Source: an uncultured Lentisphaerales bacterium (GTDB lineage: Bacteria > Verrucomicrobiota > Lentisphaeria > JABSQK01 > UBA12247). Taken from it: 64,000 nucleotides of DNA. The stretch spans positions 63,769 to 127,768 of the forward strand of contig CALSSJ010000030.1 in the NCBI GenBank assembly GCA_943788985.1, read 5' to 3'. Below the pieces are notes generated by a model. It searched no databases. It was given only the letters and a program-made list of their open reading frames with translations, and was not told where the DNA came from. This document shows, piece by piece, positions 11,604 through 64,000 of the stretch. The first letter of the stretch is position 1. Every line of letters begins with the position of its first letter. The translations under genes were made by a program, and so were the position numbers.

Positions 11604-11616
11604 GGGTGCTCTCCAG

Positions 11617-13320: not shown

Positions 13321-13327
13321 ATGGGGT

Positions 13328-47592: not shown

Positions 47593-47596
47593 TCTT

Positions 47597-49426
47597 CTAA
47601 TCCTCCAATGGTCCCAATAAATCGGTCTGCTGCTTCAAATCCAAGCTGATCACCTCGCGCATCGAGCGCTTCGCCAGCACCACCTTGTTCACATCCGCCA
47701 GCCACGTTTCCAGCAAGGCCATGTGCTCACGCGTTGTGTACAGCTCCGGATGCGCCCGGTACACGGCCAGTTGGCGACGAAAGTTCGCCACTTCCACCTC
47801 TGCCAACTTGCGGGTGCGAATCGTCTCGGCCGTCGCCTCAGCCACCATTTGGTTGGCCTCAGACTCAGCGGTTGCTTCGTACTCTGACGTCACTTGTCGT
47901 GCCTCGGCAATCGCCTCACGCGCCTTCTGCCCAGCCCGCAGTACGCCGTCAAAGGCGCTAGCGACGGCGGCAGGTGGTTGCAAGCGGCGAATCGCTACCC
48001 AGTCCACGGCCACGCCAGTTCCCATCGCTTCGCCCTCTTGGTTCATCGCCGCCACCAGCGCAGCTTGCGAACTCCGCAAATCAGCGGACAGCAGGTCGAC
48101 GATCTCATGCTCCAGCAGGAAATGGGTCAGAGCGCGTTCGGCCAAGGCACGTTGCACGCGCTCGGGCTCGCTGCAGGCCAAAGGCGTCTGGGTCGAAAGC
48201 GAGACCGCCAGCGAGACAGTTGCCAGGTTTGCGGAGTTCGCATCACGTGAGCGGCAAAGCGCCAGGCGCTGCCTGCTATCTCCCCACAGCGTCACCCCCT
48301 CGACCGCCTCGATGGCTGGCAGCGCCCTGCCCCCTTCGTTCCCAATCTCTACGATCGAGGCACGGGCCACCGGCACGCGCGTCACCCGCGTCATCGGCCA
48401 GGGCAGGCAGACGTGCAGGCCAGGCTCCAACTCGGCGATCTCGTCCGAGCCCCAGCGCTCGGCCAACCCTTTCTCAAAGGTCTGCACATGCACCAGCGAC
48501 GTCAGCAGCATCAGCGCCATGACCTGCACGGCCAGAAATGGCAGCAGCCGACGTTGGCCAAAAATCAGCAACGCAGTCGTGGACAACTTAAAGCCAAACT
48601 GATACTCGACAATCTCGGCCAGGGTCGCCATTGGCCCATGGGGCTGACTGAACAGGCCCAGCAGACGACTTTCATAGACCGGCCGCGACGTCTCGTTGCT
48701 GCGCTTTGGCCGATACAACTCGACCACCCAAACCAGGATCCGTTCTACAGCCAACACCAGTGCCAACCAGCAGGTAAGCCGCGCCCAATACACGGCCCAA
48801 ACGGGGTAGCCAGAATACACCAGCGCAGCCACGACTGCGGTGCCCACCGCGACCCCGGCCATGCCCAGAGCCACTGCGGCCACCGGGCGCAAAAATACCT
48901 GCTCGTTGCCATACGCCGCACCGACGCAGTACTTGCCGACGAAGAACACGAGTAGCGCCAACGCCACACAGGTCGCCGCGACCGGCAGCACCGCCCCTAG
49001 GTTCGCATCCCGCAAGGCCAGCATTTCCACCGGCTTCACACCGCGCAGCACGAAAACTGCCAGCACCACTTCCAAGGCCGAAAAGCCAAGCAGAATCACC
49101 GGAATCACGCCCTTCTCGAACTGTGACAGCGCCCGTTGCCGGCGTTGCCCAGCATCGATTCCTTCGCCGAACATATCGTCCTGCTTGGGCGCACCGTCAG
49201 CCTCCGCCCGTTCGTCTGCCGCCAGCACCGCTGTATGGGCATGAAACCCGGACAGCAGCGCCGTCAACCCGGCTAGAATCAGCAGGTTAGCCGTTTGCAG
49301 CACGAACGCATTCGGCAGCTCGGCCAACATCTGAAAGGCCATCACATACAGCGTCAGCGCCGCAACCAGGCAGATCCCGCTGACGACAAAAGCCATTTTT
49401 GCCTGACCGCGTGCGACTTGCTTCAC
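47597..49426 (-). CDS. Polytopic membrane protein fused to an HflK-like SPFH domain
   Basis: About seven TM segments, then ERWG...LEPGLH..LPWP, PP.AVA.AF..V..A and YRAHPE. GTG at 49426 with a GGAGG SD and GTGA overlap. Confidence 0.8.
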   Translation of the reverse strand: MKQVARGQAKMAFVVSGICLVAALTLYVMAFQMLAELPNAFVLQTANLLILAGLTALLSGFHAHTAVLAADERAEADGAPKQDDMFGEGIDAGQRRQRALSQFEKGVIPVILLGFSALEVVLAVFVLRGVKPVEMLALRDANLGAVLPVAATCVALALLVFFVGKYCVGAAYGNEQVFLRPVAAVALGMAGVAVGTAVVAALVYSGYPVWAVYWARLTCWLALVLAVERILVWVVELYRPKRSNETSRPVYESRLLGLFSQPHGPMATLAEIVEYQFGFKLSTTALLIFGQRRLLPFLAVQVMALMLLTSLVHVQTFEKGLAERWGSDEIAELEPGLHVCLPWPMTRVTRVPVARASIVEIGNEGGRALPAIEAVEGVTLWGDSRQRLALCRSRDANSANLATVSLAVSLSTQTPLACSEPERVQRALAERALTHFLLEHEIVDLLSADLRSSQAALVAAMNQEGEAMGTGVAVDWVAIRRLQPPAAVASAFDGVLRAGQKAREAIAEARQVTSEYEATAESEANQMVAEATAETIRTRKLAEVEVANFRRQLAVYRAHPELYTTREHMALLETWLADVNKVVLAKRSMREVISLDLKQQTDLLGPLED

Positions 49427-50391
49427 CCTTGGACCTCCTGCCGCTCGTACAGCAGGGTGGCCAGGGGTAGGCACAACAGCATAAAGAACAACACGCGCAG
49501 CACGCAATCAACCACAAAAGCGCCGGTAATCATGCCGCCATCCGCTAGAAAATCAGTCAGCCAGAACAGCTGCCAATCCGGCAGCACCCCGCCGATCACC
49601 ATGCCAGCGGTACCGCTCAGATCAGCAGTCACCGATGCATTCGTGATCAACCCCAGAAAAAACACAGCCAGCCCACAGCCGAACACCACGGGAGAGTCCC
49701 AAAGCACCGCGACCGGCAGTAGAATGGCCAGAAAAATAAGCATCGCCGGCACCAGGAACACCCCGCTCTGAACGCCGGTCATGTCCGTATGGCTCCCCAA
49801 TAAGGTGCGAATCACCGCCCCCAGCAACACAGCGACTGCGATTGCGAAGTTCGCAGGGAGCACGAAACTGCCGCCGAATACGCCCTGCCAGATAGCAGCG
49901 CCGATCAGGACCAGCAGAACCAGCCCAGGCAGCATCAACAGCGCCAGTTGGTCAATCTCCCCGGTCTCCGTCGCCACTTGTGAAACCCAGGCAAATCCCG
50001 ATTGCCCGGTCACGCAGAATAGCAGCAGACAGATCGCGCAACCCGTCCACTTTCCTGTGATCAGCACAAACGGAAGAATCGGCCGACTCCGCAATTCCGG
50101 TGCCGCCCCCCGGCGTAATTCATCAGTCACCGCCCGAATCAATAAGAAGCACCCGCCAAGGCAGCCGAGGATAAAGATCAGAGATTGGCATTGATCGCGT
50201 AGCAACCGCGTGTGCTCGCCATAGGTAAATCCCGGCATCTCCCCGAGCAGAACCAGCAAGGTGATCAGGCCAAGGTGCAAGACAAGGAAGAACGGGTCCG
50301 CCAAAAGCTGGCGAACCGTGTTCTTAGTCACGGATATGGATTGTTTCACTATCATATGCACTCGTGCACTACCATAGTCATTCGCAGTCAC
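49423..50391 (-). CDS. ABC-2-type permease-like membrane protein
   Basis: Multiple TM segments; +KNT.R at the start and DE+.RG....+.SRP+.....+.GKW.G motif. Confidence 0.7.
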   Translation of the reverse strand: MTANDYGSARVHMIVKQSISVTKNTVRQLLADPFFLVLHLGLITLLVLLGEMPGFTYGEHTRLLRDQCQSLIFILGCLGGCFLLIRAVTDELRRGAAPELRSRPILPFVLITGKWTGCAICLLLFCVTGQSGFAWVSQVATETGEIDQLALLMLPGLVLLVLIGAAIWQGVFGGSFVLPANFAIAVAVLLGAVIRTLLGSHTDMTGVQSGVFLVPAMLIFLAILLPVAVLWDSPVVFGCGLAVFFLGLITNASVTADLSGTAGMVIGGVLPDWQLFWLTDFLADGGMITGAFVVDCVLRVLFFMLLCLPLATLLYERQEVQG

Positions 50392-51553: not shown

Positions 51554-52465
51554 TTATAACCGCCAGCCGCGATTCTCGAGCCAACGCCCGAAGTGCCAGA
51601 GGTTCGACGCATCACGCTTGAACGGATTGACACTTGTGTAAAAACGAGTGCCAGTGGCAACCTCATCGCCAAGTGCCTTGTCACGGCCGATATACGGCTC
51701 CGTCCACCAGCCCATCAGCGCCTGCTCCCACGGCTTGAGCGAGCCACGGACGTAGCCCTGCCGATCGCCATCATCCTCGCCATGGAACATGCTAACAGTG
51801 CCATCTTCGACCGGCAAATACAGCAGATCGTTCATCGGTAGCAGCCGCGTGGTGTCCCAACCGGATTGGGTATTGGTGATGGACTGCACGCGATGACTGT
51901 CCGCCTTCAGCTCGATCTCGGGCCGCCAGCGATGCAGATCCAGGCCACTCATTTCCAGCAGGCCCGTGAGCTGCTCGCCATAGACATCCTGCTCTGCCGG
52001 ACACCATTCCGCGGGCAGACACTCGGCAGGCAGATACGACGTGGGCACGATCGCCGCGTAGCAGCCGCAGGTGTGCACCGTCGTAATCAGTACCGGCGCG
52101 TTTGTTTCATTCTCGGTCACGATCACGAACAGCCCGACGTTCTTGCCCATCGCCAAGTGGCCCACAGGGACCTTCTCGAAGTGCAGCCGATAGATGTGAT
52201 TGCGATAGCTCCCACGTTCGGTTGCGAACTCCGCAACTTCGTGGTACATGGCCGGCCGAGTCGGGTCTACAGAGACCGTCGAATCTGCGGTGTGCCCGCA
52301 AGCGCGGACGGTGCCGAGCTTGTTCAGCGACTTTTGGGTACCGTTCGCGATCACCACCGGAGAGAACTTCCCTTTTGGCGCCGCATAGCGGGTTTGCTGC
52401 GATACTGGGGTGCGGCAGCTCGTACACAAAGCTACGGTCAAAAAAACAAGAAGCAAAGACTTCAT
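51554..52465 (-). CDS. Hypothetical lipoprotein
   Basis: Lipobox-like LCTSC; conserved-looking VHTCGCY. Confidence 0.65.
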   Translation of the reverse strand: MKSLLLVFLTVALCTSCRTPVSQQTRYAAPKGKFSPVVIANGTQKSLNKLGTVRACGHTADSTVSVDPTRPAMYHEVAEFATERGSYRNHIYRLHFEKVPVGHLAMGKNVGLFVIVTENETNAPVLITTVHTCGCYAAIVPTSYLPAECLPAEWCPAEQDVYGEQLTGLLEMSGLDLHRWRPEIELKADSHRVQSITNTQSGWDTTRLLPMNDLLYLPVEDGTVSMFHGEDDGDRQGYVRGSLKPWEQALMGWWTEPYIGRDKALGDEVATGTRFYTSVNPFKRDASNLWHFGRWLENRGWRL

Positions 52466-54315
52466 GGGGGGGCCTCACGCAGATCTAGAGTGGCGCCATC
52501 CTGGAAATACATCCAGTAGGCTTGTCCTGGGAAAATAAGGTCGCCCGCCGCAAGCGGCTCGTACGAAACGCCGGAATAGCGAAAGACTGCCGCTGCAGCC
52601 GGCGGCGCAGGCACGATATCAATGGGCCCAACCGGCAACCAAGTCTCGGGTGGCAAGACCACGGGACTGAAGGTTTCCACGCCAAACCCGTGATAGACAT
52701 GCGCCGAGGGAGAGAAGAGCCACAGGCCCATGCCACTCGGGTGAGGCCCGCCAGTTGGCACAGCCGCCAGCGCCTCCCCCGTCCACAGCCAAGCTTGGCC
52801 CGGCAACTGAGCATCCGGGTGAAGGTCGAACGGAAAACTGATCAGATTCCAGCCGCGCCGCAGCGACAGCGCAAGAGTCGGCATCGCCATCAGAGTGACG
52901 GTATCCGTATCAGAGCGACCAAACTCGTCCGTGACTCTCAGCTGGTAGGTCACCGCGACACCCACGTCACCGAGAGTCGCAAAAGTCAGAACCTGGTCCG
53001 CGTCATCGACCGGGGCTGGGCTACCCCCGATCTGACTCCACTGATACGACCCGATCTGGACCGTGCCCGCGTGGGATCCCCGCCCATCTAGCGGCACCGC
53101 CGTGTCCGTAGGAACCGCTCGGTCTGGTCCGGCATCGGAAACTAAGGGAGTGTCTTCCGGGAAAACGGTCACGCTCACCAAATCAGACGCGCTATCCCCC
53201 GAATTATCGGTCACCGTCAGCCGAAACGTCAGCACGATCGCAACCGCGACGTCGGGCGTCGCAAAGGTGGGCGTAGCCAAGGAGTCGTCACTGAGCATGA
53301 CGTCCGTACCTTGCGTTTGGGTCCAGGAAAAACTGCTGATCTGACCGTCGGGATCGGTCGAGGCGCTCCCATCCAATAGCGCCTCGGTCAGCTCAAGCGC
53401 ATTGGCATCCGCCCCAGCTTTGGCAGTCGGAGGCTGGTTCCGGGGGGAAACTGTGATTTCGACGGTGTCAGTCGCCATTAGGCCGCCATCGTCAGTCACC
53501 GTGAGCTTGAACGTGATCGACTCAATCGCGTCGGCCAACGGCGCGACGAACGTGGGCATCGCCAATGCCGTGCTGTTCAGCACCACTGCTGGCCCCACCG
53601 TCCTCTCCCATTGATAGGCGACGATGCTGCCATCCGGATCTTCGGAACCCGAGCCATCCAACTGCACGGCGTCGCTCTCCTCCACGGCCTGCGGCATCCC
53701 GGCGTCGGCGACCGGCGGCAGATTATTGTCCGTCACCGTCACCACGATCTCGTCGGTATCGGTCGCGCCGTCATTGTCGGTGACCGTGAGTCGAAAGGTC
53801 AGCAGCGCCCCAGCTACGGGAACCTCCGGCGTGATGAACGAGCTAACGCTAGGTCCCAGCGGCGCGAGCGCAACGCTCGGCCCCGCTACTTGCGCCCAAG
53901 CGTGATTCGCAACCATTCCGTCCAGATCGGACGAATCCGTGCCGTCCAGAAACGCCTCCACGCCTTCTGGGATCTCAAAGTCATCGCCGGCGTCTGCCTG
54001 CGGCGGAAGCGCCACGGCCGCCTCCAGCGCCCCACCCTCGATCCACGCTTGAAACAGCTGCCGATCAGCCGTCCCCAACGGCGCGCCTTGCGGCATACGT
54101 CCTGCTTGAATTGCGCTGTTCGCACGGGCGTGTGCGCCCCCAGAGGTCGCCGACGCGTACGTGTGGAACCGCAGCCCTGCCGAGGCCTGGCCTGGACCGT
54201 GGCACGACACGCAGAATGGCCCGAGAATCCGAGGCAGGATGTCATCGTCATAGGTCACTTGCTGCCCCAGGCAGGACAGAGCGAACGTCGCCCAGCACAC
54301 GCACCACTTCATCAT
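52462..54315 (-). CDS. Exported monoheme cytochrome c fused to four PKD/Ig-like repeats
   Basis: CVSCH plus a candidate distal Met (GRMP); four repeats of PP.ADAG...LDG..S.D.DG....W.Q..G...F.LTVTD..G..D; C-terminal GWNLISFP domain. Confidence 0.8.
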   Translation of the reverse strand: MMKWCVCWATFALSCLGQQVTYDDDILPRILGPFCVSCHGPGQASAGLRFHTYASATSGGAHARANSAIQAGRMPQGAPLGTADRQLFQAWIEGGALEAAVALPPQADAGDDFEIPEGVEAFLDGTDSSDLDGMVANHAWAQVAGPSVALAPLGPSVSSFITPEVPVAGALLTFRLTVTDNDGATDTDEIVVTVTDNNLPPVADAGMPQAVEESDAVQLDGSGSEDPDGSIVAYQWERTVGPAVVLNSTALAMPTFVAPLADAIESITFKLTVTDDGGLMATDTVEITVSPRNQPPTAKAGADANALELTEALLDGSASTDPDGQISSFSWTQTQGTDVMLSDDSLATPTFATPDVAVAIVLTFRLTVTDNSGDSASDLVSVTVFPEDTPLVSDAGPDRAVPTDTAVPLDGRGSHAGTVQIGSYQWSQIGGSPAPVDDADQVLTFATLGDVGVAVTYQLRVTDEFGRSDTDTVTLMAMPTLALSLRRGWNLISFPFDLHPDAQLPGQAWLWTGEALAAVPTGGPHPSGMGLWLFSPSAHVYHGFGVETFSPVVLPPETWLPVGPIDIVPAPPAAAAVFRYSGVSYEPLAAGDLIFPGQAYWMYFQDGATLDLREAPP

Positions 54316-54860
54316 TCACTCATCCTCAGCCTGCTTCGTCTGGATCCATATACTACCGAGATCGCGACCCGTGTCGAGTCAAGCCGCACAACCTCTTACA
54401 TCACGCTGCATGCGGACTACGACATCAATAAGGCGGACCGCTTTCAGGAGTGTTATACATGGTCCTCTACTTCAACTTCTCCGTCGTCAATAAAAATAAG
54501 GACCAGGTTCAGCAAAGCTTCAATGACTAATGTGTCGATCACATCGAATAGTTTTCCGAGCGCTACAGTCACCTACTGCCAGCCCCATTCATCGCCAGAA
54601 TGGCGAAAAAAACGGCCTATGAGAAGCTTCGGTTGATGGCAACTCGCGCCCCACGGCGGGATCACACTGAAAAAGCTCGTGCTCATCTTCAAAGGCTGGC
54701 ATCTGGTGCATCGCTGCGAAGCGGAGTAGGCGGGCTGCCCGCGCTCCCAGCCTGTGAACTGAACCTCTTGCCCCGGTGGCCTGTTTGGTTTCCGGCATTA
54801 TGTTGCCTCACGGCCCCGATAGGAACACCCCAAGCGTCGCGTGATCAAGGAAAACTGAGT

Positions 54861-55343
54861 ATGGCTGGCCCGCAAGATCGTAAGGATGACACCTTCTCCC
54901 GCAAGGAGGTCTACGGCTCAGGCCACAAGCGGCGCAAGAGTTGGGCCGCGCAGCGCCGCGAACGAACCTTCCAAGACTGGTATGGCCCGCAGGGTGCGGA
55001 CCTGGAGATCGAAGGACGACAGCCCCCGCCCCAACAACTCGCCGACCTAATCGGCGCCGAATTGGTCGGCATGAACGCGGACAATCACCAGCTCATGCGC
55101 AGCCTCATGGACGCCTGGGAAGATCTAATCCCTCCAGAAATTTCCAGCATCGCCGGCCCGCAGCGGTTCTATCGCGGCTGCCTCTACATCGAGGTCTGGG
55201 AGCAAAGCTGGATCTTCATTCTCCGCACCCGCCATGAACGCGAGCTGATGGCCATTTTGCGGCGGCATTCACAAGGGCGCATTCGGCGCATTCAGTTTGT
55301 CCCCGGCGGCAGCACCAACACCAAAAAACCACGTTTCACATGA
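54861..55343 (+). CDS. DciA/DUF721-like protein
   Basis: L...W..+.P.EI...A.P.....G.L.+.V....W...L, ending with I.F; ATG at 54861 with an AAGGA SD. Confidence 0.65.
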   Translation: MAGPQDRKDDTFSRKEVYGSGHKRRKSWAAQRRERTFQDWYGPQGADLEIEGRQPPPQQLADLIGAELVGMNADNHQLMRSLMDAWEDLIPPEISSIAGPQRFYRGCLYIEVWEQSWIFILRTRHERELMAILRRHSQGRIRRIQFVPGGSTNTKKPRFT

Positions 55344-56083
55344 ATATCGGGCTCTTCGTCCCCTGCTTTATCGACCAGCTTCATCCCCCAGCCGCAATCG
55401 CCACCCTGCGCCTGCTCGAGCACTACGGGCACTCGGTAGCCTATCCTGAATCACAAGTCTGCTGCGGCCAGCCAGTGATCAATGCGGGACAGTCTGACAT
55501 CGCCGAATATGCAGCCAGATTTGAAACCTCGTTCGAGCAGTATGACGCCATCGTCTGCCCATCGGCGAGTTGCGTCGCCACCATTCGCCATCTTTATCCG
55601 CAGCTTACCAGCCGCTGCGCAGCGGTAGTCGAAAAGACCTACGAGCTGTGCGAGTTTCTGGTGGATAAGCTGGCCGTGGCATCAGTGCCGGGGCGTTGCG
55701 GAGATCGCATCGCCGTCCACCAAAGTTGCCATGGCTTGCGCGAGCTCCGCCTTGGCCCTGCCTCGGAGTTACTCGGCGAGCACCTGCCGCAGCCAACAGA
55801 TCGCCTGAAACAGCTGCTGGGGATGATCCCCGACGTGCAGCTGGTGACGCCGGCCCGGCCCGACGAGTGCTGCGGCTTCGGTGGCATGTTTTCCGTAGTC
55901 GAAGAGACCGTCTCCTGCCTCTCCGGTAATGCCCGTCTGAAAGCCTGCCTGGACGTAAAGGCAGACATCGTCACCGCTACGGATTGGTCCTGCCTCATGC
56001 ATCTGCAGGGCCTGGCTCAGCGCCAAAAGCTACCCCTGCGCTTTCAGCACGCAGCCGAGATCCTCGCCGGAGATCTGCCATGA
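55340..56083 (+). CDS. lutA: Lactate utilization protein A (CCG domains)
   Basis: LFVPCFID, Q.CCGQP, PSASC, HQSCHGLR, ECCGFGG.FS, D.SCLMHL. Confidence 0.9.
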   Translation: MNIGLFVPCFIDQLHPPAAIATLRLLEHYGHSVAYPESQVCCGQPVINAGQSDIAEYAARFETSFEQYDAIVCPSASCVATIRHLYPQLTSRCAAVVEKTYELCEFLVDKLAVASVPGRCGDRIAVHQSCHGLRELRLGPASELLGEHLPQPTDRLKQLLGMIPDVQLVTPARPDECCGFGGMFSVVEETVSCLSGNARLKACLDVKADIVTATDWSCLMHLQGLAQRQKLPLRFQHAAEILAGDLP

Positions 56084-57438
56084 AGGGCCATCCTGAACGG
56101 GCTGCGGAATTCGCAAAAGACGCGACTCGCGTCGAGACCACCGACCGGAATATGTGGACGGCCCGCTCGTCCCGTGATCGGGCGCGAGCCGCCGTTCCTG
56201 ACTGGGAAGAGTTGCGAACCGCTGCCAGCACGATCAAGGCGCACACCATGTCTCGGCTCGACCACTACCTCACGCAGTTTGCGGACTCCGCAACTGCCAA
56301 CGGGATTCACGTGCATTGGGCCAAAGATGCCGAAGAGCATAACCAAATCGTGCTGAAGCTGCTGCGCGAGGCAGAAGTGACCGAAGTGGTCAAGAGTAAA
56401 TCGATGCTCACCGAAGAGTGCGAACTGAACCCGTTTCTCGAGCGCAACGGCATTCCCGTGATCGACACCGATCTCGGCGAACGCGTCGTGCAATTGCGCG
56501 AGGAAGCGCCCAGCCACATCGTCACCCCGGCGATCCATCTCAATCGCGGCCAGATCGCCCAGACCCTTGCCGAGCACCTGCACAGCGACCCTGATAACGA
56601 TGACCCACACTACCTCACCAGCGTCGTCAGCAAAGACCTGCGCGGGCGCATTCACCGCTCCAAGGTCGCGCTCACCGGCGTGAACTACGCGGTCGCAGAG
56701 TTGGGCGGCATCGTAATCTGCACCAATGAAGGAAACGTCGACCTAGCCGTCGCCACCAGCGACATCCACATTGCCAGCATGGGCATCGAGAAGATCATCC
56801 CGCGCCTTGCCGATCTGCCGGTCTTTCTACGCTTGCTGGCGCGCTCCGCCACCGGCATGCCGAGCACGATTTATACCAGCCATTTCACCGGCCCGCGCCA
56901 AGACAGCACCATGCATGTGATCATCGTCGATAACGGGCGCAGCCAGCTCCTGGCGGACGAAGACCACCGGGAAGCACTGCACTGCATTCGCTGTGGTGCC
57001 TGCGCGAACACCTGCCATGTCACCCGCCGCGGCGGTGGCCACGCCTATGACTTTTCCACCAGCGGGCCGATCGGCAGCATCGTCGCCCCGGCGCGCGATC
57101 ACGATCGCTACGGCTCGCTGCCCTTCGCCTGCACCCTCTGCGGCTCCTGTAGCGATGTCTGCCCGGTGCGGATTCCGCTGCATCGCCTGCATCTGTCCTG
57201 GCGACGACGGTTGCTCTCACAAGGCCATGTCTCCGCCGACAAGCGCCGCCTGCTGGCGCAAATGAACATGGTTTTGCGAACTCCGCAACGCTACCGACTT
57301 GCTGGCAAAGCACTGCGGACCGCGCTGCGCATCGCCCCCGGATTGCTCGCACGCCTGTCCCCCTGGGGCAAGCAGCGCGATCTGCCCCCAGCGCCACCGG
57401 AGTCGTTTCGAGACTGGTACCGGAAGCACCGCAAATGA
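56080..57438 (+). CDS. lutB: Lactate utilization protein B (Fe-S)
   Basis: VKSKSM.TEE, TDLGE, PSHIV.PAIH, TNEGN, CIRCGAC..C, CTLCGSC..VCPV; ATG at 56080. Confidence 0.93.
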   Translation: MKGHPERAAEFAKDATRVETTDRNMWTARSSRDRARAAVPDWEELRTAASTIKAHTMSRLDHYLTQFADSATANGIHVHWAKDAEEHNQIVLKLLREAEVTEVVKSKSMLTEECELNPFLERNGIPVIDTDLGERVVQLREEAPSHIVTPAIHLNRGQIAQTLAEHLHSDPDNDDPHYLTSVVSKDLRGRIHRSKVALTGVNYAVAELGGIVICTNEGNVDLAVATSDIHIASMGIEKIIPRLADLPVFLRLLARSATGMPSTIYTSHFTGPRQDSTMHVIIVDNGRSQLLADEDHREALHCIRCGACANTCHVTRRGGGHAYDFSTSGPIGSIVAPARDHDRYGSLPFACTLCGSCSDVCPVRIPLHRLHLSWRRRLLSQGHVSADKRRLLAQMNMVLRTPQRYRLAGKALRTALRIAPGLLARLSPWGKQRDLPPAPPESFRDWYRKHRK

Positions 57439-58001
57439 GCCGCGACGCCGTTCTCAACGCGGTCCGCGCGGGCAAGCCCCCGAAACTGCCGCTCCCGCCG
57501 CCCTATTCAGCGCCCGAGCGCGCAGACGACCCAGTTGCGGAGTTCGCACGGATCCTGACAATCGTCGGCGGCCACTGGCATGTGGCGACCGACCTGGCGA
57601 CGACGCTTGCCGAGATTACGGGGCCACTCGCTGAGCATGGCCCGGTCCTGGATTGCACCAGCGCCGAGACGTCAGAAGTTGCGAAGTCCGCAACGCCGCG
57701 GAGTGCGGTCATTGTCGAGGGAAGAGTCGGGGTTGCCGAGATGGGGGCGGTCTGGGTCGGCCCGACTCTGCTTGCGCGGTCCTACTTGCCGGTGGTCTGC
57801 CATGCGCTCGTGGTGGTGATCACGCGCGAAGCGATCGTTCATTCGCTGCACGAAGGCTACGCACGAGCAGCCCAGTATTTGGAAGACGAGCCCTATGGCA
57901 TGTGGATCGCTGGCCCGAGTAAAACCGCAGACATCGAGAAGACGCTAGTGATCGGCGCGCAGGGCACCGCTGCGCATCATATCGTCCTAAAGACATGCTA
58001 G
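57435..58001 (+). CDS. lutC: Lactate utilization protein C (LUD domain)
   Basis: GVAE.GAVW, IAGPSKTADIE..LV.GA.G. Confidence 0.9.
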   Translation: MSRDAVLNAVRAGKPPKLPLPPPYSAPERADDPVAEFARILTIVGGHWHVATDLATTLAEITGPLAEHGPVLDCTSAETSEVAKSATPRSAVIVEGRVGVAEMGAVWVGPTLLARSYLPVVCHALVVVITREAIVHSLHEGYARAAQYLEDEPYGMWIAGPSKTADIEKTLVIGAQGTAAHHIVLKTC

Positions 58002-59869
58002 ATCTCGAGTTCCCCCTGGCCTTTGGGCTCCTCCGCCTGTGCGCCGAAGGTCGCCCAGACGAAACGGCCGCTGTCGACCTAATCTGCCACGCCCTAGATC
58101 AGGGCGTACGCGTTCTCGACACTGCCGATTCGTACTCGCTGGGTGCCCGCGATATGCACTATGGCGAGCATCTGGCCCGCAAAGCCGTGGCCGAATGGGG
58201 CGGCGCAGCCGACACCGTCAAAATCCTGACCAAGGCCGGCCTGACGCGCCCCAAGGGACGCTGGGTCCCGAACAGCAGTCCAGAACACCTGCGCAAAACG
58301 ATCGAAGGCAGCCTGCGGAACCTGGGCGTGGACTCGATTCCCACGCTGCTGCTCCATGTCCGCGACCCCAGACGTCCGTTCGAGGAAACCCTGGCCGCGC
58401 TGGCGAAGCTGCAACAAGAAGGAAAGATCCAAAACCTGGGGCTGTGCAACACCAGCGTTCCTGAAATTCTCCAGGCATCGCGGCATTTTTCGGTCACCAT
58501 GATCCAGAACGAACTCAACGTCATGGACCGCAAGAGCGCAACCGACGGCGTGCTGGCCTACGCAAAAATGAACGCGATCCCGTTCCTGGCGCATCGCCCG
58601 TTGGGCGGCCATGGCAAGGTTACGAAGCTAGCGGGAAACCGGGCGATAAAGCCGATCGTCCAGCGCCACGGCATCACCCCTTACGAAGCGGCATTTGCGG
58701 TGATCGCAAACCTCGGCAAGCCAGTCATTCCGTTGCTCGGTGCAACCCGCCGCGACTCTCTGGACTCATCGCTCCGCGCCGCCCGGATTCAGCTCGATGC
58801 CGAGGATTGGGCCGCGCTCCGGCAGCGCATTTCATTCGCAGCCCGGCCGCAAACTTCGGCACTGCTGGCACCACCGACTTCGCCCTCAGACCTGGCTCCA
58901 TTGGAGCGCGGAAAGGGTCCGGGCTTCGAGCCGGAGGTCGTCATGGTCATGGGCATTCAAGGTGCGGGCAAGTCCAGCTTGGTCTCCCAGTATGTGGAAG
59001 CTGGCTACATTCGCTTGAACCGGGATCTGCTCGGCGGCTCCTTGGCCGACTTGGTCCCAATTCTCGACGACGCGCTGCTGCATGAGCCACGGGTGGTCTT
59101 GGACAACACCTATCCGACCCAAAGCTCGCGCTGCTCGGTCATTCGTATCGCCCACGCCCACGGAGTACCGGTGCGCTGCAAATTCATCGCGACGCCGTAC
59201 CACGACGCCATGCTCAACGTCGTCGGCCGCGTACTCGACCGCTATGACCGACTTCCCGGCCCAGATGAGCTGAAGTCCCTGGCCCGCACCGACCCAAATC
59301 TGCCGCCGCTCGGCGCGCTCAAGCGCTGGCAGGAGAGCTTTGAGGTACCGAGCCCCGCCGAGGGATTCTCGATGATTGAAACCGTTCCGTTTATCCGCCG
59401 CCCGCAGCCCGGCACCAAGAAAGCACTATTGCTCGATGTAGACGGCACCATCCGCACGACGCAGAGCGGCGAGAAGTATCCCCGCCATCCCGATGACGTC
59501 GTGCTATTGCCGAACCGACGCGAGGTGTTGTCGTGCTGGCTGGCCGAGGGCTATGCCCTGTTTTTTGTCTCGAACCAAAGCGGCATTTCGTCAGGGAAAG
59601 TCAGCCAGGAGGCCGTCGATGCAGCCTTCGCCAGAACGGTAGAATTGCTGGACCTACCGGTAGTCGAGGTCACGTACTGCCCACATAAGGCATTTCCAGT
59701 GACCTGCTTTTGCCGCAAGCCCTACCCGGGCTTGGGCGTGATGCTCACCCGCAAGCACGGCCTGGATCTCCATGAACTAGTGATGGTCGGCGATCGCGCC
59801 AGCGATGCGGAGTTCGCACGCGCCCTTGGCGCGACCTACCACGAGGCCGAGGCCTTCTTCCAACTCTGA
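57995..59869 (+). CDS. Aldo-keto reductase / polynucleotide kinase / HAD 3'-phosphatase triple fusion
   Basis: AKR: DTADSY, TKAG, LLH, GLCN, QNE. Kinase: GIQGAGKSS, NRD, LDNT. HAD: DVDGT, SNQSG, CRKP, VGD...D. Confidence 0.85.
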   Translation: MLDLEFPLAFGLLRLCAEGRPDETAAVDLICHALDQGVRVLDTADSYSLGARDMHYGEHLARKAVAEWGGAADTVKILTKAGLTRPKGRWVPNSSPEHLRKTIEGSLRNLGVDSIPTLLLHVRDPRRPFEETLAALAKLQQEGKIQNLGLCNTSVPEILQASRHFSVTMIQNELNVMDRKSATDGVLAYAKMNAIPFLAHRPLGGHGKVTKLAGNRAIKPIVQRHGITPYEAAFAVIANLGKPVIPLLGATRRDSLDSSLRAARIQLDAEDWAALRQRISFAARPQTSALLAPPTSPSDLAPLERGKGPGFEPEVVMVMGIQGAGKSSLVSQYVEAGYIRLNRDLLGGSLADLVPILDDALLHEPRVVLDNTYPTQSSRCSVIRIAHAHGVPVRCKFIATPYHDAMLNVVGRVLDRYDRLPGPDELKSLARTDPNLPPLGALKRWQESFEVPSPAEGFSMIETVPFIRRPQPGTKKALLLDVDGTIRTTQSGEKYPRHPDDVVLLPNRREVLSCWLAEGYALFFVSNQSGISSGKVSQEAVDAAFARTVELLDLPVVEVTYCPHKAFPVTCFCRKPYPGLGVMLTRKHGLDLHELVMVGDRASDAEFARALGATYHEAEAFFQL

Positions 59870-59872
59870 GTG

Positions 59873-60010
59873 TCAGCCTTCATTGTCGTGATCAAAGGCT
59901 GTGCAGTCCTCAAAGGCGGTGTGCCACTTAGCGTATTGCTCGCCGAAGATGCCCGGCCGAAACTCTAGCAACTCCTCCTTGTTCTTGGTAACGATGAGCG
60001 CACCAGTCAT
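59873..60010 (-). CDS. Possible 45-aa small protein
   Basis: AAAAGGAG SD about 10 nt before the ATG; MTGALIVTKNKEELLEFRPGIFGEQYAKWHTAFEDCTAFDHDNEG. Confidence 0.35.
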   Translation of the reverse strand: MTGALIVTKNKEELLEFRPGIFGEQYAKWHTAFEDCTAFDHDNEG

Positions 60011-60044
60011 GGCTGTATTCGCTCCTTTTCGGAGGCAAGTGTGC

Positions 60045-60913
60045 TCATTCTATGTCATACGTTTGGTCCTCACAATCCAAATATACCTGCAGTGTGCAGG
60101 TTTCATGCTCCCAGCTTACCAGCCCGAATTGGAGAGGAAAGCCAGTGCAGACGATCGCCTTCAAACTTGCGGGGGATAATCCGGGATTTCGCCCTTCAAT
60201 CAGGTCCCACAGCCGGAGCCAGGCAAGATGCCTGCAGCCCCACCAGGTACCCGCACCGAGTATAGCAACCAGCAGCGCGGGCAGCCCTAATTTCAGAGCC
60301 CAAAGCGCCAAGTGAGTTTTACCGTCAATCCAGTACTCCGCACTGATAAACAGGATCCCACATGCGAGAGTTCCGACGACAAGCGCGACGGCCAGGGCGC
60401 AAGCTCTGGTGCCCCCCCAGAAGCGCAGACCACGGGTCTCGTATTGGACGAGCAGCGATCTTCCTCGGTGCGGCCTCGACATTCTCCAGCGGCGGGGTGT
60501 GCGCAATGGAGTCTTCGAGATACGCCTGCACGCTGGGCGCGTCCGTCGCAGACACAGTCAGACTGGCGTATGTTTTGGCGCTCGTGGCGGCAGCGACCAG
60601 GTCGAAGACCACCAGCCCTCCCATGAGTTGCGAACTCCGCATGACAGAATCAGGCAGAAGACGACAACCACCCCGCTCAGAATTCTGAATGCCAGTTGGG
60701 GTAAGCAAAGTTGGGACGGGAGCGTCTGGGGCCGCAAATGAAGCAGCAAAAGGCCCAGGTCGCTAACCAGGTAACAGGGATCAGCACCAGAACCGAAAGC
60801 GAGGCAAGTGGCCAGCTCACCTAGGACAGGGCGATGGCAATGACCACAGTGGCGACCAGTCGGATACGAGTCCTTCCTATGCGCTGCCGTGCCTTCGCAG
60901 CCGCATGGTCGTG
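60045..60913 (-). pseudogene. Degenerate membrane-protein gene fragments
   Basis: Hydrophobic segments spread over several frames, with an in-frame TAG at 60821 and no own start. Confidence 0.4.
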
Positions 60914-61153
60914 CGTGTGCATCCAGGTGATGAGGCCGACGCAGTTCTCGTCGGCATTGACGTCACGGCAGATCGCGTAGACTTCATCCGGTGTGGTCAC
61001 GGTCGGCTTCCAGACCACCTCCACCGGAATTGCGGAGTCCGCATGGAATGCCGCAGCTATTTCTTTGGCATTGGCCGCCACCTGTTCGAGCGTCTCCGGC
61101 CCGTAGAGGTGCTGACTGCCGGTGACAAACCAAAGTGTACCTGTCTTGCTCAT
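60914..61153 (-). pseudogene. araA: L-arabinose isomerase, N-terminal 80 codons only
   Basis: WFVTGSQHLYGPETL...C.G+ITWMHT, after which homology ends (the expected FSPAK is missing). Confidence 0.88.
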
Positions 61154-61165
61154 GCCAATGTTCTT

Positions 61166-61867
61166 CTATTTCTGCCCGTAGTAGGCATTCGCGCCATGCT
61201 TGCGGAGGTAATGCTTGTCCAAAAGAAACTGATCGACCGCGCCGATCTCGGGAGCCAGGGCGACGGTCGTGGTGGCCATCTTGGCGACCTCTTCCAGGAT
61301 CTGGGCACTGATGACCGCCTTCATCGCGGTTGCTGCCCAGGTGAATGGTGCGTGACTCGAGACCAGGACGCCGGGAAGCTCATCGGCCTTTAGGTCATTC
61401 TCCGTGAAGTGCTCGGCGATCACCTTGCCGGTGTTGAGCTCGTTGGCGCTCTCAATCTCGGCATGGGTCAGGGGCCGGGTGCAGGGAACGGAGCCGTAGA
61501 ACGTATCGGCATGGGTGGTGCCAAGGCATGGAATCTCGCGCTGGGCCTGCGCCCAGGCCGTGGCATAGGTCGAATGCGTGTGCACGATTCCGCCAATGGT
61601 GGGAAACGCGCGCTACAGGTGCCAATGGGTGGCAGTATCGGACGAGGGGCTCAGCGCGCCTTCAACCTGTTCGCCGGTCTCCAGCGAGATGAGTGGAATG
61701 TCGGCTGGCGTCATTTCGGCGTAATCCACACCGCTCGGTTTGATCGCAAAGACACCGGCGTCACGGTCGATCTCCGAGGCATTCCCCCACGTAAGAATCG
61801 CGAGCTGAACCCGGTTCATCTCTTTGTTCGCGGCACAGACTCGTTCTTGTAGAGCTTTATATCCCAT
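61166..61867 (-). pseudogene. araD: L-ribulose-5-phosphate 4-epimerase with an internal amber codon
   Basis: TWGNAS, IKPSGV.Y, PSSDT.TH..L*RAF..IGGIVHTHS, GTTHAD.FYG, HY.RKHG.NAYYGQ; TAG at 61613-61615 is in frame. Confidence 0.88.
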
Positions 61868-61909
61868 CAACCTTCTCTTACCGTTGAACTAAGCTGGTGC
61901 CGGGAGAAC

Positions 61910-62072: not shown

Positions 62073-63680
62073 CTAAGCCAAGGCCTCAACGGCGGCTCGC
62101 TGAATGGCCAGCCCCTTGTGGTAGCGCGCGAAGAACTCATTGAAGCCAGCGACATCGGTCGGATCTGGCTGAACGGCTTCGCTCATACTGCCTGCGAATA
62201 CCTGTTCTAAAAATGCTGGCAGTGTTTGCTCACGGGTCTCACGGGTCATGTAGGCCGCCAGCAAGGCAATGCCCCAGGCACCACCTTCACCAGCGGTGGC
62301 CAGGGTCGAGACTGGTGTGTTGGTGGCGGCGGCCATAATGCGCTCCCCGACCACCGGCGTTTTAAAGAATCCGCCGTGACCGCGGATCTCATCCACTTCC
62401 ACGCCCTCTTCGGCCACTAGGACATTCAGGCCCGTCCGCAAAGCGCACAGCGCCGTGAACAGGTGCGCGCGAACAAAATTGGCCAGGGTAAAGCTGCTGT
62501 CTGAAGAGCGGGTAAATAGTGGTCTTCCTTCGCTGAAGCCGGTCATGTGCTCGCCGGAAATATAGCCATAGGAGAGCAGGCCACCGCAGTCTGGATCTCC
62601 CTGCAGAGCCAGCGGGAGCAAGGTCCCGTAAAGGTCCGCCGTCGGGACCTTGGCGCCCAGCGCTTCGGCGGCCTGGCCGAAAAGGTCAAACCAGGCGTTG
62701 AGATCTGACGTACAATTGTTGGCATGCGCCATCCCGACGAGTTTTCCGTCCGGCGTGGTGATGAGGTCGATCTCGCGGTGGGCTTGCGAAAGGTCTTTCT
62801 CCAAAACCAGCATGGCAAACACCGACGTGCCCGCCGAGACATTGCCCGTTCGCACAGCCACGCTGTTTGTGGCCACCATGCCAGTGCCAGCATCGCCTTC
62901 CGGGGGACAGAGCGGGATGCCCGCTGCCAAATTTCCGGCTGGATCCAACAGTTGCGCTCCGTCGGCTGTCAGCAGCCCTGCGGACTCGCCAGCATTCAAG
63001 ATTTTAGGCAGTAGATTTCTTAGCTTCCAGCTATAGCCGTTGCTCTCGACGTGGGCATCAAATGTATCAACCAGGGCGGCATTAAAATCCTGACTCTCAA
63101 GATCAATCGGGAACATGCCTGAGGCTTCGCCAATCCCCATCACCTTCTGTCGTGTCAGTATCCAATGGACGTAGCCAGCCAGCGTCGTGATGTGCGCGAT
63201 TCGGCCCACATGCTCTTCGCCGTTCAACATGGCCTGATAAAGATGGGCAATGCTCCAGCGCTGTGGAATCGGATAGTTGAACAGCTCGGTGAGCTCTTCG
63301 GAAGCCTGCTCGGTAGAGGTATTCCGCCAGGTACGGAACGGCGTCAGCTGATTTCCTGCTGCATCGAAAACCATGTAGCCATGCATCATGCCGCTGAAGC
63401 CGATGGCCTTCACCTGCGTTAGCGACACCCCGTATTGCGCCTGCACATCTTCTTGCAGCTCGGCAAAGCTCGCCTGCAGCCCCAGCCAGACTTCGGCGAG
63501 CGGATAGGTCCAGATGCCGTCGGCCAGCGTGTTCTGCCAGCCGTGCCCACCGGAAGCAATGGGCGCGTAATCCGGGCCAATCAGCACCGCCTTGATCCGG
63601 GTCGAGCCCAGTTCAATCCCGATCGTGGCCCGTCCCCTCTGAATGATCTCTGCAACCTGCTGAGGATCTCGATCTGCCAT
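62073..63680 (-). CDS. araB: FGGY-family L-ribulokinase
   Basis: [63 protein letters not shown] at 63680 with an AGGAG SD; upstream of araD/araA. Confidence 0.88.
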
Positions 63681-64000
63681 TGAATTACTCCTGAACACCT
63701 TACTAAGCTCGCCATAGCAGAATCTGCTGCGGGCCCCGCCTTGGGGGTAGATCTGCCCACTATACGCCCTTTAGTCGATCGATTCTGCCACCAAGGATCA
63801 TTTTTTCGCGGTGTCTTGCTAACAGCCCATGGCGGGATTTGGCTGAGGCTACTCGAACCAATCCTGCCAGTAGACTTCCTGGAGCGCATACCCAGAGGAA
63901 CCGTGTGGAACCGCGCCCCCCACAAGGGATAGAGTCGGGTCTTGGAGGGTTTCTGCATGGCCGTCAACGTAGGCCGCCTGGTAGGCAGTTACATGCCAAG

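Follow-up and report, generated by a model that had tools for sequence, protein, structure and literature searches.

The window (the whole 64 kb stretch of DNA that was analysed) carries on its + strand an ORF, P0001, that starts with an ATG at 57995, stops with a TGA at 59867-59869 and encodes 624 aa. In its product an aldo-keto reductase (AKR) domain is followed by a kinase domain resembling that of PNKP and then by a HAD-IIIA phosphatase domain. Three lut genes with the same orientation are found upstream. The features of the region are the following.

55340-56083, + strand: lutA, upstream and co-oriented (Pfam CCG)
55984-57438, + strand: lutB, upstream and co-oriented (Pfam LUD_dom plus Fer4)
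57435-58001, + strand: lutC, upstream and co-oriented (Pfam LUD_dom)
57995..59869, + strand: whole ORF P0001, 624 aa, with the AKR, then the PNKP-like kinase, then the HAD-IIIA phosphatase
58016..58825, + strand: aldo-keto reductase domain, residues 8-277 (Pfam PF00248)
58118-58120, 58133-58135, 58232-58234 and 58355-58357, + strand: AKR tetrad residues D42, Y47, K80 and H121, respectively, conserved in 74/74 relatives
58826..58927, + strand: AKR-kinase linker (residues 278-311), which contains a single short helix at 285-291
58928..59392, + strand: P-loop domain resembling 5'-OH polynucleotide kinases, residues 312-466
58970-58972 and 59024-59026, + strand: kinase residues K326 of the P-loop GIQGAGKS and the NRD motif with R343 and D344, respectively; R379 and R412 lie further on
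59420..59836, + strand: HAD-IIIA phosphatase domain, residues 476-614
59435-59443, + strand: HAD motif I (D481/D483), with motifs II (S526), III (K575) and IV (D600/D604) further on, all intact in this protein
59678-59713, + strand: CxH...CxC loop, C562-C573

The lutC stop codon (TAG, 57999-58001) overlaps the ATG of the fusion ORF, an arrangement which suggests that the latter is probably co-transcribed with lutABC. Downstream lies a decaying ara operon with broken genes, and the region is otherwise housekeeping. Scans for promoters and terminators near the operon brought up nothing over the shuffled expectation that bears on the fusion gene, and the PADLOC defence-system models did not match the fusion ORF or its 8 neighbours. 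No DNA-repair family was detected by Pfam in 48 ORFs of the window (17 near the gene and 31 elsewhere). Likewise, no ligase, Prim-Pol or ExoIII-like gene was recovered in the 64 kb by tblastn with the corresponding proteins of related loci. The lutABC context is uninformative on the function of the fusion enzyme.

All of the motifs quoted in an earlier note on this DNA were present in the translation: DTADSY (42-47), TKAG (79-82) and LLLH (118-121) in the AKR; VMVMGIQGAGKSS, YIRLNRDLLG, VVLDNTYPT..SR, GVPVRC and FEVPSPAEGFSMIETVPF in the kinase region; and LDVDGTIRTTQSGEKYP, SNQSG, RKPYPG and VGD in the HAD region. The three modules that it had described were also recovered by Pfam above the gathering scores, with limits close to those it had drawn, as Aldo_ket_red (residues 8-277, E 1.3e-42), AAA_33 (residues 315-418, E 2.7e-8) and PNK3P (residues 479-604, E 1.5e-8). 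The full-length AlphaFold model is a single compact structure (pLDDT 95.2, pTM 0.87) whose linker, residues 278-311, has a pLDDT of 86-90, and the prediction implies that the AKR, the kinase and the HAD form a fixed three-domain assembly. The same architecture was common to 120/120 of the homologues listed, which are near-length matches covering 96-100% of the protein, and an identical protein (cluster P0002) is present on other contigs. The ORF is real and the fusion genuine. An assembly or frameshift artefact joining separate genes has a negligible chance of being the explanation: the neighbouring ara genes are broken and the region is thus not lesion-free, but the 120 listed homologues, which come from many sources and carry the same domains, effectively rule this out, and the identical protein on other contigs and the one confident three-domain model speak against it as well. 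Literature searches for an AKR-kinase-HAD architecture found no relevant paper, in agreement with the earlier note, which knew of no characterised protein of this kind; in the portion of PMC10140301 that was available there is no mention of AKR or PNK.

With PF00248 the AKR domain (residues 8-277) scored 146.3 bits, where the cut-off is 24. Its catalytic tetrad, which the earlier note had judged to be apparently intact, is in place and invariant in 74/74 aligned relatives. In a wider collection of 400 sequences, an AKR region was called in 258, and 251 of these had an intact tetrad; the 7 exceptions were mostly fragments, and one was a WD40 fusion without an AKR domain. This invariance argues for a catalytic AKR domain and against a dead scaffold. 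The nearest solved relative in the sequence search was AKR13B2 (8hnq, E 1.5e-29, 31% identity), also matched by Foldseek (E 2.8e-21, TM 0.83 on the target), so that the two have in common the short-loop (alpha/beta)8 TIM barrel and the intact D-Y-K-H tetrad. They differ in that the AKR studied here has kinase and HAD domains joined to it, and in a 9-residue gap that HMMER places in AKR13B2 just past the catalytic Tyr, facing query residues 48-56. In both the sequence and the fold searches, the closest AKR relatives are enzymes that act on small molecules. Kv-beta-type AKRs were seen among the weak matches.

Mammalian PNKP (1yj5, 3zvl, 3u7e) is the nearest solved relative of the kinase in sequence and in fold, and the likeness that the earlier note had drawn from motifs is real. 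Mouse PNKP (1yj5) aligned with query residues 311-466 over chain residues 223-363 in the single-sequence search (E 2.5e-13), and the profile search gave 89.4 bits (E 2.1e-24) for its kinase domain. A profile built on the kinase-HAD module again had mouse PNKP as its best solved relative (E 3.4e-44), and PNKP also ranked first when the model of the module was searched with Foldseek (mPNKP, 3u7f, E 6.9e-12, 34% identity). The P-loop, the catalytic Asp of the NRD motif and the SR arginine are shared with PNKP. K326 of the P-loop and D344, which aligns to the NRD of PNKP, are invariant in 74/74 relatives, as are G320, G325, R343, D370, T372, R379, R412, E456 and G457. The remaining PDB matches of the kinase domain were the polynucleotide kinases T4 Pnk, Pnkp1 and one labelled as Metallophosphoesterase (the 4jst group, which we take to be C. 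thermocellum Pnkp), together with two fungal kinases without assignable identity. No known small-molecule kinase was found among the 28 sequences with E<=0.01 in the profile search of solved structures. Small-molecule kinases of the PFK-2 type match the kinase fold more weakly in Foldseek (E about 2e-6).

The HAD domain passed the cut-off of TIGR01662 (HAD-IIIA, 75.4 bits vs 44.6) and that of Pfam PNK3P (34.9 bits vs 22), and fell below that of TIGR01664, the DNA 3'-phosphatase model (46.7 vs 107.65). Its best scores were with the group of GmhB (D,D-heptose 1,7-bisphosphate phosphatase) and HisB-N (histidinol-phosphate phosphatase), all under the equivalog or other cut-offs: TIGR01656 (81.5 bits with the whole protein, 83.2 with a sub-range, vs 84.15), PRK08942 for GmhB (77.1 vs 178) and TIGR00213 (45.3 vs 149.6). 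The closest solved HAD in the profile search was the heptose bisphosphate phosphatase 4pnh (80.3 bits). The CRKP motif is shared with this group, and so is the CxH...CxC loop (C562, H564, C571 and C573, each conserved in at least 90% of the 74 relatives), which is presumably the zinc-binding loop of GmhB/HisB-N. The earlier note had held that a HAD domain that groups with GmhB and histidinol phosphatases and acts only on sugar phosphates would refute its end-repair enzyme, and the result goes half of the way there: the profile scores (81.5 and 77.1 against 46.7 bits) and the loop make a sugar phosphate a possible substrate, whereas the fusion to a PNKP-like kinase sets the domain apart from GmhB/HisB-N, as does the loss of catalytic residues in much of the family. 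These residues are degenerate in 40/43 rows of one major clade. The term 'three-activity' may suit the protein studied here, in which the catalytic residues of all three domains are intact, but it does not extend to the whole family.

The kinase-HAD part can be compared with two known end-healing systems. PNKP also combines a 5'-kinase with a HAD phosphatase, and its HAD aligned with ours, the segment past DxDGT included (profile score 55.3 bits). Both domains of 1yj5 aligned, the HAD at query residues 476-584 and chain residues 26-129 (E 4.9e-8), and the chain and query ranges show that the domain order is permuted: PNKP runs FHA, phosphatase, kinase, whereas here the kinase (312-466) precedes the HAD (476-614), as the earlier note had stated. 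Other differences are the added AKR domain, the lack of any FHA match, the absence of the CxH...CxC loop from the aligned PNKP segment, and the score with TIGR01663 (94.1 bits vs an equivalog cut-off of 502.8), to which only the kinase and part of the HAD contributed. The order P-loop kinase then HAD-type phosphatase in one chain is that of T4 Pnk (1ltq, 2ia5), an RNA-repair enzyme, and of bacterial Pnkp1. Foldseek aligned both domains with 2ia5 over about 337 columns (E 1.4e-10), but with an rmsd of 12.8 and 14% identity, so that the inter-domain geometry differs; sequence similarity to T4 Pnk is weak (39.3 bits with the profile), and T4 Pnk has no AKR.

The family is large, widespread and uncharacterised in bacteria. 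At E<=1e-30, far beyond chance, 478 library representatives matched, and relatives were found in Myxococcota, Planctomycetota, Actinomycetota, Chloroflexota, Gemmatimonadota and Dormibacterota. Current annotations of family members go no further than 'aldo/keto reductase' or 'HAD-IIIA family hydrolase'. Judged from the alignments, the AKR and the kinase form the constant core, and HAD catalysis appears dispensable in one clade. Asgard archaea and jumbo phages have a standalone kinase-HAD module, and a relative of this module carries an HNH nuclease domain (P0210, HNH-kinase-HAD). The phage collection yielded two jumbo phages with the module on its own; its neighbours there include NAD synthase, NADAR and APS kinase but no ligase, so the phage context has no bearing on the choice of function. 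The plasmid collection gave AKR-only matches, none spanning at least 80% of the query. Long members of the family carry an N-terminal extension of roughly 170-230 aa. Pfam did not match it at E<=1e-4, nor at E<=5; there was no Atlas match, no PDB sequence match and no shorter homologue either, and a copy was found neither in the window nor in the related loci. The net charge of the domains over the 74 relatives was unremarkable, with medians of about 0.

A DNA-repair neighbour was present at 6/16 related loci, on the same strand and in an apparent operon. An ATP-dependent DNA ligase is encoded directly upstream in L003, with a 4-nt overlap, and in L005 and L006, and a LigD-type Prim-Pol directly downstream in L009, L010 and L016, together with a convergent ExoIII-like gene; L005 additionally has an ExoIII-like gene. 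The Prim-Pol of L010 and the ExoIII-like genes of L009 and L016 were recovered by tblastn, not by Pfam. These six loci represent about two types of arrangement, L005 and L006 belonging to one MAG, and all come from a distant clade (31-38% identity, degenerate HAD, Actinomycetota-type MAGs). No repair neighbour was seen at the other 10/16 loci. LUD or CCG domains, as in lutABC, were absent from the 123 neighbour ORFs scanned at the 16 loci. The ligase, Prim-Pol and ExoIII-like neighbours and the HNH fusion lend indirect support to a role in nucleic-acid end repair.

From these comparisons nucleic-acid end processing appears to be the probable role of the protein. We tentatively propose that the fusion is an end-healing enzyme in which the AKR would fix a 5'-aldehyde, the kinase would phosphorylate the end and the HAD would clear the 3'-phosphate. 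In this scheme an aldehyde on the broken strand would be reduced by the AKR at the expense of NAD(P)H; that its aldehyde is strand-borne at all is a suggestion that we also make with reserve. The likeliest substrate would be the nucleoside 5'-aldehyde left by C5' sugar oxidation (by hydroxyl radical, radiation or enediyne antibiotics), which would be turned into a normal 5'-OH, although this specific assignment is doubtful. The PNKP-like kinase would then use ATP to convert the 5'-OH into a 5'-phosphate, and in the clade of this protein the HAD-IIIA domain would take off the 3'-phosphate that accompanies such breaks. The resulting 3'-OH and 5'-phosphate ends would be sealable by a ligase, with gap filling where needed. 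In the clade with a degenerate HAD, an ExoIII-like partner may clear the 3'-phosphate in its place. We infer that the substrate is a nucleic acid, DNA rather than RNA, and that 3'-phosphate ends are what the HAD works on. Chemically the constant pair is coherent: the reductase would make a primary alcohol, and the kinase would act on primary 5'-alcohols. The protein might thus be dedicated to the direct reversal of C5'-oxidised strand breaks, the AKR restoring the 5'-OH, the kinase adding the phosphate and the end going to ligase or Prim-Pol, a possibility that we regard as no stronger than the 5'-aldehyde assignment itself.

To our knowledge there is no dedicated repair enzyme for 5'-aldehyde strand breaks. 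When radicals attack the sugars of DNA and RNA, such termini are among the commonest products, and they persist for days, according to the available portions of PMC12564780 and PMC4227780, and borohydride turns the 5'-aldehyde into a 5'-OH (PMC4227780, in the part available). The accessible sections of an end-processing review (PMC3825254) describe 5'-aldehyde termini as products of C5' oxidation and, in double-strand breaks of the neocarzinostatin or calicheamicin type, one end with a 5'-aldehyde plus a 3'-phosphate or 3'-phosphoglycolate; the same sections call the resolution of these 5'-aldehydes after enediyne damage 'essentially unknown'. In the available portion of a 2025 review, the only repair route given is non-specific long-patch BER (PMC12564780).

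Three other functions were considered. The first, which we find unlikely, is a small-molecule pathway in which the AKR turns a free aldehyde (sugar, nucleoside 5'-aldehyde or alpha-oxoaldehyde-derived metabolite) into an alcohol, the kinase phosphorylates this alcohol and a GmhB-like HAD dephosphorylates a sugar phosphate, for salvage, detoxification or biosynthesis, possibly linked through lutABC to lactate or aldehyde metabolism. The GmhB/histidinol-phosphatase scores with the CxH...CxC loop, the match to 4pnh, the small-molecule substrates of the closest AKRs and the probable co-transcription with lutABC would all suit it, and PFK-2 is proof that the kinase fold can serve small molecules. 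Yet the identifiable PDB sequence relatives of the kinase are polynucleotide kinases, lutABC-type domains are missing at 16/16 related loci while a ligase or Prim-Pol adjoins at 6, and the HNH fusion exists; in addition, if a kinase-phosphatase cycle on small molecules were obligatory, the loss of HAD catalytic residues across an entire clade would not be expected. Somewhat less likely still is a PNKP-like end healer whose AKR works off the strand, either as an NADP(H) sensor or regulator, as in Kv-beta subunits, or as a detoxifier of small reactive aldehydes set free at oxidative breaks. Kv-beta-type relatives are there among the weak matches, and the compact predicted assembly would permit allosteric coupling, but the strict retention of the tetrad in 74/74 relatives argues for chemistry over sensing alone; for the detoxifier, the present data do not separate strand-borne from free aldehydes.

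The version put forward in the earlier note, with an AKR reducing aldehydic abasic or 3'-unsaturated remnants, to which 5'-dRP can be added, and the kinase and phosphatase acting as in PNKP, seems to us improbable. It draws on the same neighbours, HNH fusion and PNKP-like kinase as our proposal, and the ExoIII-like and Prim-Pol genes suit repair of the base-excision type, a LigC/Prim-PolC apparatus having been reported in mycobacterial BER (PMC5663958, in the part available). On chemical grounds, however, a reduced AP site, 5'-dRP or 3'-PUA would be an alditol-type residue, still blocking ligation and offering no substrate to the kinase, and the invariant pairing of AKR and 5'-kinase with a dispensable 3'-phosphatase would be left unexplained. 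Reduction of a 5'-aldehyde to a 5'-OH would fit this pair better.

If the proposed 5'-aldehyde repair is true, this would be the first known enzyme to repair DNA through the reduction of an oxidised sugar end, and it could shield soil bacteria from enediyne-type antibiotics and radical damage. An AKR hard-wired to a 5'-kinase is a concrete and easily assayed candidate for the missing repair activity. Even with another substrate, the family, with its 478 library representatives at E<=1e-30, is a large one.

The open reading frame at 57995-59869 on the forward strand is real, and its product of 624 aa carried three Pfam domains, each above the gathering score:

Pfam domains of the 624-aa product
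residues 8-277, Aldo_ket_red, E 1.3e-42
residues 315-418, AAA_33, E 2.7e-8
residues 479-604, PNK3P, E 1.5e-8

The three modules read from the sequence in an earlier note (aldo-keto reductase or AKR, PNKP-like kinase, HAD-IIIA phosphatase) were borne out, and every motif it had quoted was found in the translation. In a search against solved structures, the N-terminal part of this protein, the query, matched AKR13B2 (8hnq, E 1.5e-29), residues 311-466 matched the mouse PNKP kinase (chain 223-363, E 2.5e-13) and residues 476-584 the mouse PNKP phosphatase (chain 26-129, E 4.9e-8). Since mouse PNKP aligned in two pieces whose order was swapped, the kinase precedes the phosphatase here, the permuted arrangement that the same note had claimed.

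Of the 7999 candidates scored in the near-length search, 1017 proteins reached E<=0.001. The 120 matches listed of these 1017 were all 621-691 aa long, covered 96-100% of the query and, one identical cluster aside, were 59-64% identical to it; AKR, AAA_33 and HAD-type Pfam domains were present in 120/120. These listed matches come from Nannocystis, Minicystis, Planctomycetes and Nanopelagicales, and their source names were only 'aldo/keto reductase', 'HAD-IIIA family hydrolase' and 'histidinol-phosphate phosphatase family protein'. An exhaustive search of representatives returned 19461 proteins at E<=0.001, many of which must be plain AKRs, and 478 at E<=1e-30. AlphaFold, with 74 relatives as input, produced a single compact model (pLDDT 95.2, pTM 0.87). 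The three-domain fusion is genuine and widespread; an assembly artefact joining separate genes was excluded by this model and by the shared architecture of the listed homologues. No paper on the AKR-kinase-HAD architecture was found within the limited collection searched, in agreement with the earlier statement that no characterised protein is known to have it. The domains are of known kinds, and it is their combination and the implied chemistry that are new.

The AKR tetrad (D42/Y47/K80/H121) was invariant in 74/74 aligned relatives, and the best Foldseek matches of this domain were short-loop AKRs (AKR13B2, perakine reductase, pyridoxal reductase and AKRtyl). Among the same 74 relatives, the kinase residues G320, G325, K326, R343, D344, D370, T372, R379, R412, E456 and G457 were invariant. 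A profile of the kinase-HAD module built from 17 sequences (A2) matched mouse PNKP at E 3.4e-44, with 89.4 bits for the kinase part. Its other kinase-domain matches were T4 Pnk, Pnkp1, chains labelled 'Metallophosphoesterase' (4jst and related), which we take to be the C. thermocellum Pnkp kinase, and two fungal kinases. None of the 28 PDB matches at E<=0.01 was a known small-molecule kinase, the two fungal kinases among them being without assignment. The AlphaFold model of the module (pLDDT 94.0) had mPNKP as its top Foldseek match (E 6.9e-12, 34% identity), and PFK-2 was matched only at ~2e-6. T4 Pnk could be aligned across both domains, although the inter-domain orientation differs (rmsd 12.8).

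Judged by profile scores, the HAD domain is the weakest of the query's links to PNKP:

Scores of the HAD domain
TIGR01656 histidinol-phosphatase domain, 81.5 bits, cut-off 84.15
PRK08942 GmhB, 77.1 bits, cut-off 178
TIGR01662 HAD-IIIA, 75.4 bits, cut-off 44.6
TIGR01664 DNA 3'-phosphatase, 46.7 bits, cut-off 107.65
Pfam PNK3P, 34.9 bits, cut-off 22
GmhB 4pnh (A2 profile), 80.3 bits, cut-off n/a
PNKP phosphatase (A2 profile), 55.3 bits, cut-off n/a

The domain scores above the Pfam cut-off for PNK3P but below that of TIGR01664, which TIGR01656 and PRK08942 both outscore. The domain also carries a CxH...CxC loop (C562, H564, C571, C573), at least 90% conserved in the 74 relatives and presumably the zinc loop that it has in common with GmhB and HisB-N. 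Its catalytic motifs are all present in the query (D481, D483, S526, K575, D600, D604). We file the query as a probable variant of the PNKP/T4-Pnk-type end-healing enzymes, outside the PNKP equivalog family because it does not reach the equivalog score and has the order kinase-phosphatase, whereas PNKP has phosphatase-kinase.

Conservation of the catalytic HAD residues breaks down across the family, with D481 found in 45/74 relatives, D483 in 57/74, K575 in 59/74 and D600 in 33/74, while R574 and P576 are invariant and the Cys/His loop is kept. A FastTree tree of these 74 sequences, made from the AKR and kinase columns only, fell into two groups with SH-like support of 99 each. Group 1 (31 rows) holds the query and all long forms, with the HAD intact in 30; in group 2 (43 rows) it is degenerate, its catalytic residues lost, in 40. 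A larger set of 400 sequences (387 proteins and 13 locus proteins), in which fragments are counted and which is biased by the mode of collection, was classified as follows:

Classes among 400 sequences
AKR, kinase and HAD all intact, 154/400
AKR and kinase intact, HAD degenerate, 78/400
AKR and kinase intact, HAD shortened, 17/400
kinase-HAD only, both intact, 99/400
AKR-region call without the tetrad, 7/400, mostly fragments, one being P0237, a WD40 fusion without an AKR domain

From the residue counts, the tree groups and these classes, the constant core of the family is a predicted active reductase joined to a predicted active 5'-kinase-like domain; phosphatase chemistry appears optional, the HAD domain itself being retained.

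The genome scan gave 16 loci, all distant (31-38% identity to the query), in MAGs of Actinomycetota, Dormibacterota, Chloroflexota and Gemmatimonadaceae. Thirteen of the 16 locus proteins were aligned, L012, L013 and L015 being left out because their matches were split across frames. All 13 kept the kinase motifs, lacked DxDGT and had CRPP in place of CRKP; the AKR tetrad was present in 11, L004 and L007 being N-terminally truncated. The neighbours were surveyed with Pfam on 123 ORFs of the 16 loci and by tblastn cross-checks. In L003, L005 and L006 the gene directly upstream, in the same orientation, encodes a three-domain ATP-dependent DNA ligase, with an overlap of 4 nt in L003; L005 has an additional ExoIII-like gene. 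In L009, L010 and L016 the next gene downstream, again in the same orientation, encodes a LigD-type Prim-Pol, and an ExoIII-like gene of convergent orientation comes after it. These six loci of the 16 are all actinobacterial and amount to about two types of arrangement, L005 and L006 being from one MAG; at the other 10 no repair genes were found by Pfam and tblastn. No lutABC-type (LUD or CCG) domain was found in the neighbour ORFs of the 16 loci. At two Dormibacterota loci (L004 10268-11625 and L012 10525-11894) the same three genes come after the family member, encoding a methyltransferase, a small zf-UBP protein and a DUF5996 protein.

The surroundings of the query were as follows:

Features of the window
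10533-15034, reverse, three successive T2SSE-family secretion/pilus ATPase genes, two with MshEN domains
45692-49507, reverse, three successive SPFH/Band 7 genes
52462-54315, reverse, protein of 617 aa, four K319L-like PKD domains, weak 'Planctomycete cytochrome C' motif
54600-55343, forward, DciA-like gene, then lutA, lutB and lutC up to 58001
60821-61153, reverse, L-arabinose isomerase remnant within 59870-61165, AraA_N profile positions 3-80 of 168
61166-61888, reverse, araD-like gene (class II aldolase), interrupted by one in-frame TAG at 61613-61615
62073-63698, araB-like FGGY kinase, looks intact

The ATG of the query overlaps the stop of lutC, which lutA and lutB precede on the forward strand; the query would thereby be translationally coupled to a lactate-utilisation operon. 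Downstream, on the opposite strand, the ara operon is decaying, because the isomerase is cut to its first ~110 residues, and no frame between there and the query's end shows anything recognisable; the araB-like gene looks intact. The araD-like gene is probably a pseudogene, Aldolase_II profile positions 1-76 lying before the TAG and 88-182 after it in an unchanged frame. The 617-aa protein hints at a PVC-group or similar host, and elsewhere the 64 kb carry housekeeping genes (rpoBC, prfA-like, ppk/ppx, pilus-type ATPases). No DNA-repair family was detected by Pfam in 48 ORFs of the window, and tblastn with the ligase, Prim-Pol and ExoIII-like proteins of the distant loci gave no match there.

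AKRs convert an aldehyde to a primary alcohol, and PNK-type kinases phosphorylate the primary 5'-alcohol of a strand. A nucleoside 5'-aldehyde, arising from C5'-hydrogen abstraction, would be the one nucleic-acid lesion that joins the two steps. The AP site and 3'-PUA, suggested before as substrates, would on chemical grounds give no kinase substrate when reduced. According to PMC3825254, 5'-aldehyde ends count as major radical products, enediyne breaks carry a 5'-aldehyde along with a 3'-phosphate or 3'-phosphoglycolate, and the resolution of 5'-aldehyde ends is termed 'essentially unknown'. These ends last for days, and the sole repair described in section 2.5 of PMC12564780 is non-specific long-patch BER. 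PMC4227780 reports that borohydride reduces the 5'-aldehyde to 5'-OH and that in RNA, too, hydroxyl radicals yield mainly 5'-aldehyde ends.

We tentatively propose, at somewhat below even chances, that the AKR would reduce the 5'-aldehyde of a strand end to 5'-OH, the PNKP-like kinase would phosphorylate this 5'-OH, the HAD would remove the 3'-phosphate, and ligation would follow. Such an order would use every domain, would make AKR and kinase inseparable and the phosphatase losable, and fits the ligase and Prim-Pol neighbours of the distant loci, where the ExoIII-like neighbour possibly stands in for the lost phosphatase. As to the putative substrate, the neighbours lean towards DNA rather than RNA.

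A small-molecule pathway enzyme would agree with the GmhB-like HAD, with AKR relatives that act on small molecules and with the coupling to lutABC; we consider it unlikely, given the affinity of the kinase domain to polynucleotide kinases, the repair neighbours at related loci and the existence of a fusion to an HNH domain. It seems quite improbable that the AKR works away from the strand, either as a sensor or by detoxifying aldehydes that have been released; the invariant tetrad speaks for catalysis but is silent on where catalysis takes place.

The architecture also has variants. Many representatives of 770-1059 aa have an N-terminal extension of ~170-230 aa, which had no match in Pfam, Atlas or PDB sequences and for which no shorter or standalone homologue was found; in the long forms P0123-P0138 it is a conserved domain followed by a low-complexity linker. 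The kinase-HAD module is fused to an HNH endonuclease domain in P0210 (427 aa), and P0237 (818 aa) joins it to a WD40 beta-propeller. Two jumbo 'uncultured phage' genomes encode it as a standalone protein:

Phage kinase-HAD genes
L017 5965-6933, LR756511.1 (595 kb phage), 38.9% identity
L018 5983-6939, LR756500.1 (462 kb phage), 31.3% identity

One of them adjoins the gene of a glutamine-dependent NAD synthase; next to the other are genes for an APS kinase and for a protein with a NADAR domain. Standalone kinase-HAD proteins of ~310 aa are common, with records from Myxococcales, Gemmataceae and Promethearchaeota among them. Two such homologues, P0344 and P0372, are annotated as from MAGs of Promethearchaeota (Asgard archaea), and the kinase-HAD proteins of this group may be relevant to where the PNKP domains of eukaryotes came from.
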